Shown: positions 34,912 through 62,357 of the stretch, piece after piece
Position numbering within the stretch: the first letter of the stretch is position 1
Layout: each line of letters begins with the position of its first letter
Source of the DNA: Escherichia coli 042
Lineage (GTDB): Bacteria; Pseudomonadota; Gammaproteobacteria; Enterobacterales; Enterobacteriaceae
DNA length: 64,000 nt
Assembly: GCF_000027125.1 (NCBI RefSeq)
Contig: NC_017626.1
Strand: one strand, 5' to 3'
The notes under the pieces: generated by a model
What the model was told of the DNA's origin: nothing
The model's database searches: none
What the model saw: only the letters and a program-made list of their open reading frames with translations
Translations under genes and position numbers: made by a program

Positions 34912-35059
34912 GGCTTACTTTCTCTGCTGTAATGGTATGGGTGTTTCTGTGCACGCAAATCCGGCTGTGACACAAGGTGAGGTATTAAATAGAGGGGGAG
35001 TGAAAGGGGCAAATTATTAATAGGGTGAAGATATAATTAAATTATTAATGGGTGATATA

Positions 35060-35168
<109 letters not shown>

Positions 35169-35298
35169 GGTGTTGCATGTAACTGGTTGTTTAATAACAA
35201 TTAATATTTTTATTATCGTTTAATTCGAACTTGTTAATCCCGCCGGTGATACGCTTCAGAACATCCTGATTAATGTCGCTACTTATATCGTTCACCCT

Positions 35299-36279
35299 AT
35301 GTCTGAACTTATTGCAACTGCCGCTTCCAGCATTAACGCTTTTACTCTGGCAAAGCGTGTCGCCGCATTTAACGTGCCGGTGCTCATTCAGGGCGAAACC
35401 GGTGCGGGCAAAGAGTGCGTGGCGAAATATATTCACTCCGTAGCCTTTGGTGAAAACGCGCCCTATATCGGCGTGAACTGCGCGGCGATCCCGGAAAATA
35501 TGCTGGAAGCGACCTTATTTGGCTACGACAAAGGCGCATTTACCGGCGCAATTGCCAGCGTACCAGGCAAAATGGAACTGGCGAATAACGGCACCTTATT
35601 GCTCGATGAAATTGGCGATATGCCGCTGGCGCTACAGGCCAAAATATTACGCGTATTGCAGGAACAGCAGGTTGAGCGATTAGGCAGTAACCGACAAATT
35701 AAACTCAATTTTCGCCTGATTGCCTGCACCAATAAAAACCTTGAGCAGGAAGTCGCCGCCGGGCGTTTTCGTGAAGATCTCTATTATCGTCTGGCGGTTA
35801 TTCCTATTACCATGCCGCCGCTGCGTGAACGCCTGAACGATATTATCCCGCTGGCAGAGTCATTTATTAAAAAATACTCCACAGTGCTGGTGAAAAATAT
35901 CACCCTTTCAGAATCTACTCGCCGGGCGCTGCTCAATTACCGCTGGCCCGGCAACGTGCGCCAGCTGGAGAACGCCATTCAGCGTGGAATGATTTTAAAT
36001 CGCGACGGCGTGATTTTCCCGGATGCCTTAGGCCTGCCGGAAATAGACGTTGCCGATCACAGTGAACTGCAATGGCCTGTTCAGCCCTCCGTATCTGTTG
36101 CGGAAACCAGCGATTTAGGCCAGGCCGGACGTAGCGCCCAGTATCAATATATCGCCGACCTGATGCGTAAATATCAGGGCAACCGCAGCAAAATTGCCGA
36201 CCTGTTAGGCATTACCCCGCGCGCACTGCGCTATCGACTGGCCTCCATGCGCAAGCAAGGTATCGAAGTTTTCTCCTGA
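35299..36279 (+). CDS. lafK: Sigma-54-dependent transcriptional activator LafK, AAA+ plus HTH only, no N-terminal regulatory domain
   Basis: Walker A GETGAGKE about 30 aa from the start, GAFTGA motif present, C-terminal HTH (KIADLLGITPRALRYRL). Confidence 0.85.
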   Translation: MSELIATAASSINAFTLAKRVAAFNVPVLIQGETGAGKECVAKYIHSVAFGENAPYIGVNCAAIPENMLEATLFGYDKGAFTGAIASVPGKMELANNGTLLLDEIGDMPLALQAKILRVLQEQQVERLGSNRQIKLNFRLIACTNKNLEQEVAAGRFREDLYYRLAVIPITMPPLRERLNDIIPLAESFIKKYSTVLVKNITLSESTRRALLNYRWPGNVRQLENAIQRGMILNRDGVIFPDALGLPEIDVADHSELQWPVQPSVSVAETSDLGQAGRSAQYQYIADLMRKYQGNRSKIADLLGITPRALRYRLASMRKQGIEVFS

Positions 36280-58593: not shown

Positions 58594-59487
58594 TCAGCAT
58601 TTCTGCACAGTATTTAACAACTTCTCTAAATTCTGATACATCGCGCTATTAATATCGCTATTCTGCCAGCTATCCACATTAAAAGTTAATTGCCAGCTAC
58701 CGTTGCACTGGTTGCGCAGAACAATATCACTCTCCAGTCGGTTACGAACATATTTATAATAGGTTGTCATTGTCATATTATGCGCTGACAATAAATTATC
58801 GAGTTTGTCTTTTCCTGGTGCGAGGGTTTGTGACAGTAACGGTACGGAATTATTTTCCTTTCCAGAACTAAGATGAAATATTTTTATTCTTGGACTGTTA
58901 ATTGACTCTTTTACCAGTTGCGGGGCGTCAGGTGTACTTTTCAAGTGTGAATACCCCACGGTTGAGCCAACCAATATAACAGCTGCGGCCAACGCTAACC
59001 CCATCAGTCCTTTATGTTTTTTTCTAACAGGCACATACGGTGTTGTCGAAGATATCTCTTCTGGGGCTGTATCCTGTATCTGGTCGGTAATAATCAGCGC
59101 TTCTGCAGGCGATGACTCCGGCAAAGACACATACTCTTTATTGCATAAGTAACCTTTCTTCGGAATTGTTTTAATAATGTTCTGTTGTTTGCCATCATCG
59201 TCGATAGCAACGCGCAACGCATGGATCGCCGTCGGCAGGCTGTTTCCGCCGACAATACGGTTCTTCCATACTTCGGCACATAAATAAGATCGCGATAAAA
59301 CCACATCGGCATTTTTTGCTAATGTTTCCAGCAAAATAAAATGGTATTCGCCGAGACGACGTGTTTCACCCGTTTCGCAATGTATTAAGGCATTAAGCGA
59401 CGGGTCCATCCGCCAGTTGTTGATAATAATACTCATAGTTGAGTTTACCTTAGCAAGGGATAAATGTTTCCTGATAGTGCTTTGCAT
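58594..59487 (-). CDS. lafZ: ToxR/CadC-like single-pass membrane transcriptional regulator
   Basis: N-terminal OmpR-type winged-helix region, central TM helix GLMGLALAAAVILVGSTVGY, periplasmic C-terminus; AT-rich; alternative start MSIIINNW at 59436. Confidence 0.6.
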   Translation of the reverse strand: MQSTIRKHLSLAKVNSTMSIIINNWRMDPSLNALIHCETGETRRLGEYHFILLETLAKNADVVLSRSYLCAEVWKNRIVGGNSLPTAIHALRVAIDDDGKQQNIIKTIPKKGYLCNKEYVSLPESSPAEALIITDQIQDTAPEEISSTTPYVPVRKKHKGLMGLALAAAVILVGSTVGYSHLKSTPDAPQLVKESINSPRIKIFHLSSGKENNSVPLLSQTLAPGKDKLDNLLSAHNMTMTTYYKYVRNRLESDIVLRNQCNGSWQLTFNVDSWQNSDINSAMYQNLEKLLNTVQKC

Positions 59488-60836: not shown

Positions 60837-60880
60837 TGGCGGACTTGCCGATGCGGCGTAAACGCCTTATCCGGCCACGA

Positions 60881-60906
60881 ACAACACCGCCTGCGGGCGG
60901 TGTTGT
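60881..60906 (+). terminator. Rho-independent terminator after lafA, adjacent to a single REP unit
   Basis: Stem ACAACACCGCC / GGCGGTGTTGT with loop TGCG followed by GCTTTC. Confidence 0.55.
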
Positions 60907-60993
60907 GCTTTCAGCGGCAGGCTTTTTTCCGCCAGAACGGAAACGTCATTTCCGCCTGTTTTTCAATCTATTGATTATTCACATAAAAAATAT

Positions 60994-61040: not shown

Positions 61041-62357
61041 ATGATTAACCCAAGAACCATTGCGCAAGAAATTGCTTATGCGGATGTCGCCACCCAGGCG
61101 GCAAATTTGCAGGAGAAGCAGACCGAGCTGGACGCTGAAAGCAGCGGCCTGGACTCGCTCAGCTCGGCGTTAAGCGATTTCCAGAGCGCCGTTGACGCGC
61201 TGAACAGCGATACCGACGGCCCGGTGACTTTTGCCGCCACCAGCAATAATGACTCGGCGACCGTTTCCGCTAACTCGCAGGCACAGGCGGGAAGCTACTC
61301 GTTTTTCGTTGAGCAACTGGCGCAGGGGCAGCAAACCACGTTCAGTATGGGCGACGACGCCTTTTCCGCTACCGGTACTTTTGAACTGACGATGGGCGAC
61401 AGCACCATGGATATCGATCTGTCGGCGGCAGATCAGAACGGTGACGGCGACGGTTTTATCGACGCCAGCGAACTGGTGAACGCGATTAACGACTCCGATG
61501 ATAATCCAGGCGTTTCAGCGGCGTTGGTGAAAACCGACGGCACCACCACCATTATGCTCACCTCCGATAGCACCGGGGCGCAGAGCGCGTTTTCGGTGAG
61601 CGTAACGGGGCATGATGCCAGCAACGATAGCACCAGCGCGCCCGTTGCCACGGTTGTTTCCTCAGCCCAGGACGCGATTATTCATCTCGGTAGCGCCACG
61701 GGCCCGGCGATCACCAACAGCAGCAATACGTTTGATGATGTGATCCCCGGCGTCACCATGACTTTTACCGAAGTCAGCGATTCTGACAGCGACCTCACCA
61801 CTTTTAACATCAGCGAAGATTCCAGCTCCAGCCAGGAGAAAGTACAGACTTTTGTCGATGCCTATAACACCTTGATTGATACGGTTGATTCGCTAACCAC
61901 TCACGGTGATGACAGTACCAGCGCCGGGGTATTTGCAGGCGACGCCGGACTCAGTTCACTGGCGAACCAGCTCGATGACATCGCCCATGCCAGCTACAAC
62001 GGCGTGTCGATTGTTGACTATGGCATCACCCTCGATTCTCACGGCCACTTACAGATTGACTCCGACCAGTTCAACGACGAAATGGCGAAAAATCCTGACG
62101 GTCTGACCTCTATTTTCGTTGGCGACAACAGCATGGTAGCGCAGATGGACGACCTGATTAACACCTACACGGACTCCAGCAACGGCATCATCACCCTGCG
62201 CCAGCAGAACATTGACGATCAGATGAGCAAAATTCAGGACGAAGGCGATCAGCTTACTGATACCTATAACGCCAACTACGACCGTTATCTCGAGGAGTAC
62301 ACCAACACGCTGGTCGAGGTGTACACCATGAAAGCCAGCATGGCGGCATTCGCGTAA
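61041..62357 (+). CDS. lafB: Filament cap protein FliD homolog
   Basis: 438-aa ORF with FliD-like N- and C-terminal coiled-coil segments. Confidence 0.85.
   Translation: MINPRTIAQEIAYADVATQAANLQEKQTELDAESSGLDSLSSALSDFQSAVDALNSDTDGPVTFAATSNNDSATVSANSQAQAGSYSFFVEQLAQGQQTTFSMGDDAFSATGTFELTMGDSTMDIDLSAADQNGDGDGFIDASELVNAINDSDDNPGVSAALVKTDGTTTIMLTSDSTGAQSAFSVSVTGHDASNDSTSAPVATVVSSAQDAIIHLGSATGPAITNSSNTFDDVIPGVTMTFTEVSDSDSDLTTFNISEDSSSSQEKVQTFVDAYNTLIDTVDSLTTHGDDSTSAGVFAGDAGLSSLANQLDDIAHASYNGVSIVDYGITLDSHGHLQIDSDQFNDEMAKNPDGLTSIFVGDNSMVAQMDDLINTYTDSSNGIITLRQQNIDDQMSKIQDEGDQLTDTYNANYDRYLEEYTNTLVEVYTMKASMAAFA

Follow-up and report, generated by a model that had tools for sequence, protein, structure and literature searches.

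The lafK gene and its product

In the 64-kb window of Escherichia coli 042 (the whole stretch of DNA that was analysed), the open reading frame at 35299-36279 on the plus strand, part of the E. coli Flag-2 locus, encodes a protein of 326 aa, which is labelled 'sigma-54 interaction domain-containing protein' at the same coordinates in the NCBI PGAP annotation of identical E. coli genomes. The ORF corresponds to LafK, already known as the regulator of the second (Flag-2, lateral) set of flagellar genes in E. coli, a cluster reportedly first described by Ren et al. in 2005, and its product is an intact sigma-54 activator without a sensory domain. The features of the gene are as follows.

35299-36279, plus strand: lafK coding region for 326 aa and the stop; an AAA+ domain of the sigma-54 activator type, then a helix-turn-helix (HTH)
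35392-35415, plus strand: Walker A, GETGAGKE, LafK residues 32-39, located by motif
35533-35550, plus strand: GAFTGA sigma-54 contact loop, residues 79-84, exact match
36142-36243, plus strand: Fis-type HTH_8 DNA-binding domain, residues 282-315, from Pfam

Pfam analysis assigned LafK a Sigma54_activat domain (PF00158; residues 6-170, E 2e-64), an AAA_lid_14 domain (residues 176-244) and HTH_8 (residues 282-315), with zero domains, PF00072 included, N-terminal to the AAA+ module. Together with PF00158 and Walker A, the presence of Walker B (LLLDE, residues 100-104), sensor I (residues 142-145), the arginine finger (FREDLYYRL, residues 157-165) and sensor II (GNVRQLEN, residues 218-225) identifies LafK as a bacterial sigma-54 enhancer-binding protein (EBP). 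True sigma-54 activators can be told from TyrR, DhaR and other sigma-70-dependent relatives by an intact GAFTGA motif, and LafK retains it. Since Walker A occupies residues 32-39, the ORF starts about 31 residues ahead of it, in line with the 30 or so given in the initial annotation, which had also correctly recognized GAFTGA (residues 79-84) and the C-terminal HTH (residues 282-315). The absence of a receiver or other N-terminal sensory domain, likewise proposed there, agrees with an AAA+ match that begins at residue 6 and with a reading frame that is closed upstream. With its AAA+ match from residue 6 and its HTH kept, LafK falls among the EBPs devoid of a sensory domain (type Ic, PspF-like architecture), and Francke et al. 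2011 (PMC3162934) place it alongside PspF and HrpR/S in a group of activators that have no signal domain. The initial annotation is confirmed and its interpretation supported, though not new, the receiver-less architecture of LafK being already in the literature (PMC3162934, PMC4578781); added here are the conservation of the short form, the degenerate receiver of the Vibrio protein, a palindrome-promoter module and a frameshift in lfgC.

The lfiM-lafK spacer

The region upstream of lafK contains the following features.

34912-35298, no strand: divergent non-coding spacer between lfiM and lafK, 387 bp, 43% GC
35080-35166, no strand: BIME, an inverted REP pair (35080-35113 and 35131-35166); long hairpin possible
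35221-35223, plus strand: in-frame TAA closing the lafK frame 25 codons ahead of the ATG

The 25 codons between this TAA and the lafK ATG contain no ATG, GTG or TTG; the in-frame stop and the lack of any later start codon thus exclude an N-terminal extension of LafK. The divergent spacer presumably carries the promoters of both cluster-1 operons. It had been described as some 390 bp of REP element and non-coding DNA, and this description holds for a spacer of 387 bp that contains an inverted REP pair and whose reading frames stay open for at most 60 aa. The REP elements were read from the sequence and are backed by partial matches to Rfam naRNA4, by a BIME hairpin calculated at -54.6 kcal/mol (z -4.4), and by a median REP copy number of 28 in E. 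coli genomes. The homologous spacers of Citrobacter, Hafnia and Budvicia measure 594-641 bp at 29-36% GC, and about 150 bp found just upstream of the Citrobacter lafK ATG are missing in E. coli, the two start codons being aligned. A scan for sigma-70 promoters and terminators upstream of lafK found nothing, no sigma-54-like lafK promoter was found in the spacer, and an obvious Shine-Dalgarno sequence is lacking ahead of the ATG. A weak sigma-54-like match within lafK itself (35364-35379, minus strand) was judged to be due to chance.

The upstream region was also searched in all frames for a degraded receiver, as the initial annotation had recommended, and none was detected. Upstream of lafK, tblastn with seven receiver domains returned only noise (best E 0.07, below 20 bits) and a hidden Markov model (HMM) built from the seven domains gave only negative scores; six-frame searches with FlrC receivers, the derived HMM and the N-terminus of Vibrio LafK yielded nothing in the spacer or in the whole 64-kb window. 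The N-terminal 130 aa of Vibrio LafK, the query most relevant here, gave zero matches in E. coli, Citrobacter, Hafnia and Budvicia.

Conservation of the short form and comparison with Vibrio

The short form of LafK (324-348 aa, with the same Pfam set) is present in at least 14 named genera of Enterobacterales and was seen in every enterobacterial genus sampled, at identities down to 57%. The lafK gene is under strong purifying selection, with a dN/dS of 0.038 against Citrobacter. The conservation of the short form across Enterobacterales, where it is fixed, and a dN/dS of 0.04 show that lafK is not a pseudogene, which disposes of the truncated pseudogene that the initial annotation had asked to look for among the orthologs. 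The gene order, lfiM on the minus strand followed by lafK-lfiE-F-G on the plus strand, is shared by E. coli, Citrobacter, Hafnia, Budvicia and V. campbellii, and the position that marks the LafK group, between the divergent fliM_L-flhA_L operon and fliE_L-fliJ_L, is occupied by lafK in Enterobacterales and V. campbellii. A search of 1.84 billion representative proteins returned mainly generic EBPs and multi-domain fusions, and none of the clusters looked up carried a Vibrio or Aeromonas name. Three long 'homologs' with receiver or ACT domains (P0051, P0066 and P0077) were rejected as full-length relatives and are assembly chimeras: all three lie on ENA contigs of 2.6-5 kb, their C-terminal halves are identical or nearly so to E. 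coli LafK from FREDLYYRL onward, and their N-terminal halves derive from other EBPs, probably NtrC- and TyrR-like ones.

The Vibrio ortholog was taken from V. campbellii chromosome 2, which is filed as a plasmid in PLSDB. V. campbellii LafK (L130, 4635-5969) has 444 aa, 118 more than E. coli LafK, and is 48.5% identical to it across E. coli residues 1-326; since generic EBPs reach similar identity, the orthology of the E. coli and Vibrio proteins rests on synteny. The N-terminal 120 aa or so of the V. campbellii protein have no counterpart in E. coli LafK. They give a weak Pfam match to Response_reg (E 3.5e-4) and, aligned to FlrC, carry PN in place of DD, Ser in place of the phospho-acceptor Asp, Val in place of Thr and Arg in place of Lys; every phospho-chemistry residue is replaced, and this receiver is degenerate and non-phosphorylatable. 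The gene for Vibrio LafK (VPA1538 in V. parahaemolyticus, represented here by the V. campbellii ortholog) lies, as in E. coli, between the divergent fliM_L operon and fliE_L, and Vibrio LafK is sigma-54 dependent like its E. coli counterpart. However, the Vibrio protein has a degenerate receiver-like domain whereas E. coli LafK begins exactly at the start of the AAA+ domain, and a motY-like gene precedes lafK in the same operon in Vibrio whereas E. coli has neither a motY-like gene nor a remnant of one. The shortening of enterobacterial LafK relative to that of Vibrio is an old, fixed domain loss and not decay.

Relationship to FlrC, PspF and HrpR/HrpS

The comparison with Vibrio LafK and PspF that had been suggested returned a longer ortholog on the one hand and a protein of the same architecture on the other. 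PspF, in which a C-terminal HTH follows the AAA+ core and an N-terminal regulatory domain is missing, has a layout identical to that of LafK, and the term 'PspF-like' stands as far as domain architecture is concerned. It does not extend to the family: LafK scores 239.5 bits against the PspF equivalog TIGR02974 and 206.6 bits against PRK11608, where the cut-offs are 443.55 and 529, respectively, and FlrC is closer. The best solved relative of LafK is the AAA+ domain of FlrC (4QHS, E 1.7e-76), PspF (E 2e-54) being among the more distant solved bacterial EBP cores. Furthermore, PspF has its antagonist PspA and a psp context (pspABCDE), neither of which occurs at lafK, whose neighbours are the flagellar genes lfiM and lfiE-J. 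The resemblance between LafK and PspF is one of convergent domain loss.

The FlrC/FleR/FlaM proteins have the AAA+ plus HTH_8 core in common with LafK, and their genes, like lafK, lie directly upstream of fliEFGHIJ, as exemplified by flrB-flrC in a polar flagellar system; the 'GATDYL.(K/R)PF' end of the receiver can still be made out in Vibrio LafK. In FlrC the receiver is phosphorylatable, and a cognate kinase, FlrB, is encoded next to it, whereas E. coli LafK is without both. In the alignment, LafK starts after the receiver and linker, which separates it from NtrC-type response regulators with their phospho-acceptor Asp, and no histidine kinase is annotated in the Flag-2 cluster, in contrast to loci L004 and L131, where flrB precedes flrC. 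The best Aeromonas caviae match was the polar flrA-flrB-flrC locus and not a LafK. HrpR and HrpS are, like LafK, sigma-54 activators without a sensory domain that control a secretion or flagellar-type export apparatus, but in Pseudomonas syringae they form a paired hetero-oligomer with an antagonist, HrpV, whereas lafK is a single gene. From its position upstream of fliEFGHIJ and from FlrC being its best structural match, LafK is probably descended from a response regulator of the FlrC/FleR type, a descent suggested by synteny, the ranking of bit scores and one alignment. The loss would have been stepwise, from a working receiver and kinase in FlrC, through a dead receiver in Vibrio LafK, to none in enterobacterial LafK.

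Sigma-54 promoters and a conserved palindrome

Three sigma-54 promoter cores, each with an upstream palindrome, were found in the window.

47580-47594, plus strand: sigma-54 core TGGCAC-N5-TTGC of the lfgB (rod/hook) operon, lfgB ATG at 47632 (PMC4578781)
60994-61008, plus strand: sigma-54 core TGGCAC-N5-TTGC of lafB (fliD-like), ATG at 61041 (PMC4578781)
45920-45935, minus strand: third sigma-54 promoter candidate, CGGCAC-N5-TTGCA, upstream of a 309-aa gene
47514-47528, no strand: candidate LafK enhancer GGAAATAAAACTTCC, separated by 52 nt from the downstream GGCAC core of lfgB
60939-60953, no strand: candidate LafK enhancer GGAAACGTCATTTCC, separated by 41 nt from the downstream GGCAC core of lafB
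45976-45990, no strand: candidate LafK enhancer GGAAACGGATTTTCC, separated by 41 nt from the third, downstream GGCAC core

For lfgB and lafB, the upstream sigma-54 sites have already been published (PMC4578781), and the sites at 47580 and 60994 that the initial annotation had named as targets are indeed exact TGGCAC-N5-TTGC sequences directly upstream of these two genes. GGCAC-N5-TTGC occurs exactly three times in the 64 kb, once each ahead of lfgB, of lafB and of the 309-aa gene; the predicted regulon has promoters of the sigma-54 (-24/-12) type. The third core lies upstream of a weakly FliB-like gene (45885 to 44956, the 309-aa gene), followed by a gene for an 823-aa glycosyltransferase. GGAAA-N5-YTTCC is likewise found at only three places in the window, against 0.31 expected, a number reached by none of 100 shuffles, and the palindromes and GGCAC cores pair one-to-one with gaps of 41, 41 and 52 nt.

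A genome-wide scan for the combined pattern, carried out by exact pattern matching, gave at least 22 matches in Enterobacterales and Vibrio. For 21 of the 22 matches listed, residue 1-2 of an ortholog of LfgB, LafB or the 309-aa protein (Hyp309) is encoded 31-138 nt downstream. The module is seen again at the orthologous promoters of other Enterobacterales genera and of one Vibrio, where it precedes a lafB homolog (L082) as in E. coli. Among the matches listed from elsewhere, a flagellar gene lay downstream in 1/100 and the gaps were spread evenly over 35-60 nt. As an exact-match scan of listed matches, this analysis speaks to the association and not to the frequency of the module. Positions -2 and -1 of the palindrome, left free in the search pattern, are G at 21 of 25 and C at 17 of 25 sites. 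The 10-kb flanks of Hafnia and Citrobacter lafK contained no palindrome-promoter module; these flanks do not reach lfgB, glycosylation islands lying between. The palindrome was not found described in the searchable literature. An IHF-like site was seen by eye in the lafB spacer and is not claimed here.

The conserved palindrome probably marks the LafK binding site, but another protein could bind it instead. There is, in our estimate, an even chance of the fuller proposal that (GC)GGAAA-N5-YTTCC(GC), of 15-19 bp and 41 or 52-56 nt from GGCAC, is a LafK enhancer kept from Vibrio to E. coli alongside the stepwise loss of the receiver, the two forming a simple, default-on pair of EBP and enhancer.

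A model for LafK control and its alternatives

Taken together, the data favour, with a probability of roughly 0.8, a reading in which lafK encodes the sigma-54 EBP of Flag-2, descended from an FlrC/FleR-type regulator, binding the palindrome, active by default and controlled upstream of the protein. Once made, LafK would assemble and be active by default, and its HTH would bind the palindrome, whose centre lies 48 or 59 bp ahead of the point where the -24 element, (T/C)GGCAC, begins, the 11-bp difference corresponding to one helical turn. It would then meet the sigma-54 holoenzyme through GAFTGA across an AT-rich spacer and open the three promoters with ATP. The lfgB promoter is expected to drive the genes for rod, hook and hook-associated proteins; the lafB promoter, that for the filament cap, the first gene of the lafB-to-lafU cluster, which includes the sigma-28 gene lafS; and the third promoter, the flagellin-modification pair. 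If LafK is active by default, control lies upstream of the protein; it would act at transcription of lafK from the long AT-rich divergent spacer, possibly together with a trans-acting antagonist, and, by analogy, LafK activity would be set by its expression level.

Anti-activators are known for several EBPs, namely PspA for PspF, HrpV for HrpS and FleN for FleQ, and c-di-GMP is a ligand of the FleQ AAA+ domain. A near-constitutive LafK gated after translation by an anti-activator or by a small ligand on its AAA+ core, with lafK transcription not being the control point, is possible if rather doubtful. Such gating would be compatible with, and not opposed to, control of a default-on LafK upstream of the protein. 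The c-di-GMP site of FleQ is presumably the Arg-Asn pair that follows Walker A, and at this position LafK has, by eye, Lys-Tyr, which speaks against a ligand of this kind; nor is a PspA-, HrpV- or FleN-like gene present in the PGAP annotation of the cluster. In favour of gating, PspF and HrpS, which also lack a sensory domain and are classed with LafK (PMC3162934), are controlled by antagonists, and in V. parahaemolyticus the repression of surface-sensing genes by the degenerate EAL protein LafV depends on the presence of LafK (PMC9303241). The promoter scan at lafK, which came back empty, would fit as well, but lafK transcription in V. parahaemolyticus is under strong regulation, changing 50- to 100-fold under the repressor OpaR (PMC4406679).

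It is improbable that Flag-2 is cryptic and the short LafK a decaying, truncated and non-functional leftover of a Vibrio-type regulator, as might be argued from the additional 118 aa of the Vibrio ortholog, the frameshift of lfgC in the window, the BIME in the promoter region with the loss of about 150 bp of the upstream DNA seen in Citrobacter, and the lack of an obvious Shine-Dalgarno sequence. Flag-2 flagellin was, moreover, not detected in strain EC958 under laboratory conditions (PMC4637896), an observation that also weighs against the favoured reading. However, all the enterobacterial genera that were sampled share this short form, with identities as low as 57%, and the E. coli gene has all catalytic motifs intact, a dN/dS of 0.038, a start codon aligned with that of Citrobacter, and conserved predicted target promoters and palindrome. 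The idea that the N-terminal domain is encoded separately, or was missed through an upstream start or a programmed frameshift, was considered only for the extra 120 aa of the Vibrio ortholog and found no support. With the in-frame stop at 35221 and no alternative start after it, with six-frame receiver, HMM and Vibrio searches empty in the spacer and the 64-kb window, and with the Vibrio N-terminus finding nothing in Citrobacter, Hafnia and Budvicia either, it is refuted at the sequence level and is given practically no weight.

Implications for lateral flagella

About 24% of complete E. coli genomes contain Flag-2. LafK belongs to the small class of sigma-54 activators that lack a sensory domain, so that whether lateral flagella are built would be decided at lafK expression or by a partner protein. 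Ectopic lafK should wake a cryptic Flag-2 system if lfgC is intact, which it is not in the 042 window; with lfgC frameshifted, the Flag-2 regulon may be inert in E. coli 042. The palindrome offers a mutable target for LafK binding and an aid to forecasting which genes LafK controls in other genomes. FlrC, Vibrio LafK and enterobacterial LafK, taken as a series, would represent a natural case of a two-component regulator becoming expression-controlled, and, if the proposal is true, LafK and its palindrome would be among the simplest natural pairs of EBP and enhancer, combining one proximal site with a defined regulon of three promoters, among them that of a flagellin-modification operon.

LafK and its genomic context

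The stretch around lafK was found to be 100% identical to complete E. coli chromosomes, on which the PGAP annotation gives one strand flhA, flhB, fliR, fliQ, fliP and two genes of the FliM/FliN family, and the opposite strand a 'sigma-54 interaction domain-containing protein' with fliE, fliF, fliG, fliH, fliI and fliJ behind it. The gene order lfhAB-lfiRQPNM-lafK-lfiEFGHIJ has been described as cluster 1 of the Flag-2 (lateral-type) locus (PMC6993521), and the lafK region, present in 1284 of 5426 complete E. coli genomes, is this cluster. The initial annotation had the LafK reading frame beginning about 30 residues before Walker A, with GAFTGA, a C-terminal HTH and neither a receiver nor another N-terminal sensory domain, and each of these points was borne out by the following features.

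Features of lafK and its upstream spacer
387 bp, lfiM-lafK spacer, holding a BIME, the remainder AT-rich
35080-35113 and 35131-35166, two inverted REP elements forming the BIME, read from the sequence
35299-36279, + strand, lafK ORF, 326 aa
LafK residues 6-170, Sigma54_activat (Pfam, E 2e-64)
LafK residues 32-39, Walker A
LafK residues 79-84, GAFTGA
LafK residues 100-104, Walker B
LafK residues 142-145, sensor I
LafK residues 157-165, arginine-finger motif FREDLYYRL
LafK residues 176-244, AAA_lid_14 (Pfam)
LafK residues 218-225, sensor II
LafK residues 282-315, HTH_8 (Pfam)

No Pfam domain was found N-terminal to the AAA+ domain, and the lafK frame is shut upstream of the ATG by an in-frame TAA at 35221, with no start codon among the 25 codons between them. 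The roughly 390 bp upstream had been read as a REP element and AT-rich non-coding DNA, in agreement with a longest stop-free stretch of 60 aa in any frame of the spacer. The BIME is supported by partial Rfam naRNA4 matches, folds into a hairpin of -54.6 kcal/mol (z -4.4), and a query containing it matched E. coli genomes at a median of 28 places each. Divergent promoter regions are an unusual site for REP elements, and the BIME (35080-35166) is placed within one. Spacer length is conserved among Flag-2-carrying E. coli strains; just upstream of the lafK ATG, where no clear Shine-Dalgarno sequence was seen, E. coli is without about 150 bp present in Citrobacter. The LafK allele most frequent in E. 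coli has 328 aa; relative to it, Asp-Asn is missing here at residues ~52-55 (window 35452-35463; AFGENDNAPYIG versus AFGENAPYIG), an in-frame deletion in the loop after the Walker A helix that is probably neutral.

Origin of the short architecture

A short EBP of this kind could be a truncated pseudogene or the remnant of a gene whose receiver has decayed upstream. The best 120 database relatives of LafK, with identities down to 57%, include proteins from Citrobacter, Leminorella, Enterobacter, Scandinavium, Pseudescherichia, Atlantibacter, Siccibacter, Budvicia, Paramixta, Pantoea, Hafnia, Regiella and Erwinia, and the full-length ones are 324-348 aa long with the same Pfam set as LafK. Citrobacter, Hafnia and Budvicia carry lafK at the equivalent position, 3' of a longer non-coding spacer (594-641 bp, 29-36% GC) in which no genes are called, and the dN/dS of lafK between E. 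coli and Citrobacter is 0.038. Because of this uniform form, conserved position and spacer, and low dN/dS, the short LafK is a fixed architecture and not a product of decay, and the orthologs argue against the truncated pseudogene that the initial annotation had considered. Its proposed search for a degraded receiver returned nothing: tblastn with seven receiver domains, and an HMM derived from these, yielded nothing above noise, and neither did the N-terminus of Vibrio LafK and the adjacent motY-like gene against four enterobacterial spacers and the whole window.

Three proteins among the best 120 (P0051, P0066 and P0077) carry receiver or ACT domains; these were rejected as full-length relatives, being assembly chimeras from short metagenome contigs in ENA. 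In each, a C-terminal half that equals or nearly equals that of E. coli LafK is joined at the FREDLYYRL motif to an N-terminal half from another EBP, probably NtrC- or TyrR-like. Such artefacts could mislead surveys of domain architecture.

The earlier description of LafK as PspF-like holds for architecture and not for family. Its best solved relative is the AAA+ domain of V. cholerae FlrC (4QHS, E 1.7e-76), followed by NifA, NtrC1, NtrC, FleQ, FlrA, ZraR and LuxO, with PspF appearing later (E ~2e-54), and LafK reaches none of the NCBIfam equivalog cut-offs, those for PspF included. Its behaviour is probably PspF-like. In a polar flagellar system (L004), fleQ, flrB and flrC directly precede fliEFGHIJ, the slot taken by lafK in Flag-2. 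Another retrieved locus (L002, 890-1906) encodes a distant 338-aa receiver-less EBP directly upstream of fliEFGHIJ, whose closest relatives are a mixture of receiver-less proteins of ~330 aa and receiver-bearing FlrC-like proteins of ~445 aa. Receiver-less FlrC-like EBPs (324-351 aa) before fliEFGHIJ are common in other Gammaproteobacteria, e.g. Ectothiorhodospira and Thioalkalivibrio, and interleave with the ~445-aa receiver forms at 60-70% identity; the receiver may have been lost more than once in the FlrC-like lineage.

The Vibrio ortholog was taken from the lateral locus on V. campbellii chromosome 2, which is held in PLSDB as a plasmid. This 2.06-Mb replicon (NZ_CP050465.1) is nearly unannotated, as is the 4.94-Mb Aeromonas caviae chromosome (NZ_AP026896.1), also entered there as a plasmid. 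On one strand of the V. campbellii locus lie lfiP, lfiN and lfiM homologs; the opposite strand carries a motY-like gene of the OmpA family (350 aa), the gene for an EBP of 444 aa, and fliE, fliF and fliG homologs. The EBP is 48.5% identical to residues 1-326 of E. coli LafK, from which it differs by ~120 additional N-terminal residues with a weak Pfam Response_reg match (i-E 3.5e-4, 21 bits). Aligned to FlrC receivers, it retains the C-terminal 'GATDYL.(K/R)PF' segment, and DD is replaced by PN, the phospho-acceptor Asp by Ser, Thr by Val and Lys by Arg. Since the residues of receiver phospho-chemistry are replaced, phosphorylation of Vibrio LafK is unlikely. The start of enterobacterial LafK coincides exactly with the end of the receiver and linker, the dead domain having been dropped. 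Together, synteny, score ranking and alignment suggest that LafK descended from an FlrC-type regulator.

Probable target promoters and a shared palindrome

The 64-kb window contains exactly three copies of the sigma-54 core GGCAC-N5-TTGC. The promoters that the initial annotation had placed at 47580 and 60994 were recovered upstream of lfgB and lafB, sites reported earlier for strain PCN033 (PMC4578781), and a third core precedes a 309-aa gene. Comparison of the three upstream regions exposed a shared palindrome, GGAAA-N5-YTTCC.

Sigma-54 cores, palindrome copies and associated genes
45885 to 42306, - strand, 309-aa gene, then 823-aa glycosyltransferase gene
45920-45935, - strand, third core (CGGCAC-N5-TTGCA; GGCAC from 45934), 36 nt before ATG 45885
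45976-45990, palindrome, 41 nt before the GGCAC core of the 309-aa gene
47514-47528, palindrome, 52 nt before the lfgB GGCAC core
47581, + strand, lfgB core, 38 nt before lfgB ATG 47632
60939-60953, palindrome, 41 nt before the lafB GGCAC core
60995, + strand, lafB core, 33 nt before lafB ATG 61041

The third promoter candidate (45920-45935) is not mentioned in the literature examined. The product of the 309-aa gene is weakly FliB-like (lysine-methylase-like; 44 bits, cut-off 85). The position of this core before the 309-aa gene and the glycosyltransferase gene suggests that the LafK regulon takes in genes for flagellin modification. A further REP element and a GC-rich hairpin (60848-60915), placed between lafA and the candidate enhancer and promoter of lafB, are consistent with a terminator dividing lafA from the LafK-dependent lafB operon.

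The palindrome occurs in only these three places in 64 kb, against 0.31 expected, and none of 100 shuffles reached this count. Its right flank, TTCCGCCTG, is the same in all three copies, and its centre lies 48 (309-aa gene), 59 (lfgB) and 48 bp (lafB) from the first base of (T/C)GGCAC, so that the spacings differ by one helical turn. When 100,044 species genomes were scanned for exact matches to the palindrome, a 35-60 nt gap and the core, at least 120 stretches matched, with about 100 expected by chance (19 specified bases, 298 Gb). Among the matches listed, 22 are from Enterobacterales or Vibrio (several Enterobacter, Enterobacteriaceae RIT691, Pantoea, Pseudocitrobacter, Mangrovibacter, Cedecea, Budvicia, Yersinia thracica, Lelliottia, Rahnella and Vibrio rotiferianus), and for 21 of these, residue 1-2 of an ortholog of LfgB (12), LafB (7) or the 309-aa protein (2) follows 31-138 nt downstream. 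The gap in these listed modules measures 52-56 nt at lfgB and 40-43 nt at lafB and the 309-aa gene, Vibrio lafB being the exception with 53 nt; the other 100 matches listed have a flagellar gene downstream in only one case and gaps spread evenly over 35-60 nt. Positions outside the search pattern are also conserved across 25 sites: -2 is G in 21 and -1 is C in 17, and TTCC is followed by G/C and then C. Among the matches listed, the module is conserved before the lfgB, lafB and 309-aa-gene orthologs of about 10 further enterobacterial genera and of V. rotiferianus.

This is strong comparative evidence that the palindrome is a cis-element tied to LafK-dependent promoters, and we infer that it is bound by the LafK HTH, making it a candidate LafK enhancer. 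The literature open to search, which excludes key subscription papers, gave no account of where LafK binds. The 15-mer GGAAATAAAACTTCC, identical to the E. coli lfgB palindrome with its five spacer bases included, lies within the motY-like gene upstream of V. campbellii lafK (L130, 3836-3850); no sigma-54 core is near it in that locus, and it could be a chance occurrence or an autoregulatory site.

Proposed control and state of the system

Since LafK lacks a receiver and a kinase and has all its catalytic motifs intact, it would be active whenever present. From the proximal palindrome it would drive open-complex formation at the three promoters; that of lafB would head the downstream lafB-to-lafU gene cluster, an operon structure suggested by gene order, which includes the sigma-28 gene lafS (PMC6993521), and sigma-28 would then drive the late genes. 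Control would thus fall on lafK expression. In V. parahaemolyticus, OpaR lowers lafK mRNA 50- to 100-fold and binds AT-rich sites upstream of the lafK operon (PMC4406679), on which several further regulators converge (PMC9029033). Consensus scans of the 387-bp spacer yielded no E. coli lafK promoter; speculatively, a long AT-rich spacer conserved across genera fits a region under heavy regulation, possibly silenced by H-NS. LafZ, encoded in the locus, is an obvious candidate for the input to lafK and for an upstream regulator of the locus; its layout is ToxR/CadC-like, with no receiver:
58594-59487, - strand, LafZ, N-terminal Trans_reg_C (OmpR/PhoB-type winged helix) at residues 42-114

A post-translational antagonist could possibly act on LafK as well.

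Compared with the intact flgC of strain 118UI, lfgC (47969-48403), which stands second in the LafK-dependent rod operon, has a 2-bp insertion at ~48015-48016 that shifts the frame after residue 16, the remainder continuing in another frame; this defect has been reported for strain 042 (PMC4578781). LafK is intact in the window, but its regulon is probably not productive in this strain, where the lfgC frameshift probably leaves Flag-2 non-functional. In EC958, where lfgC is intact, Flag-2 flagellin was undetectable (PMC4637896).

That LafK is a sigma-54 activator without a sensory domain and of PspF-like architecture is correct and already published (PMC3162934), as is its action on the lfgB and lafB sigma-54 promoters (PMC4578781), and would not surprise a specialist. 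What may be new is the Vibrio pseudo-receiver contrast, the argument from the position of FlrC, the third promoter candidate and the palindrome with its conservation, all modest extensions of a known system.
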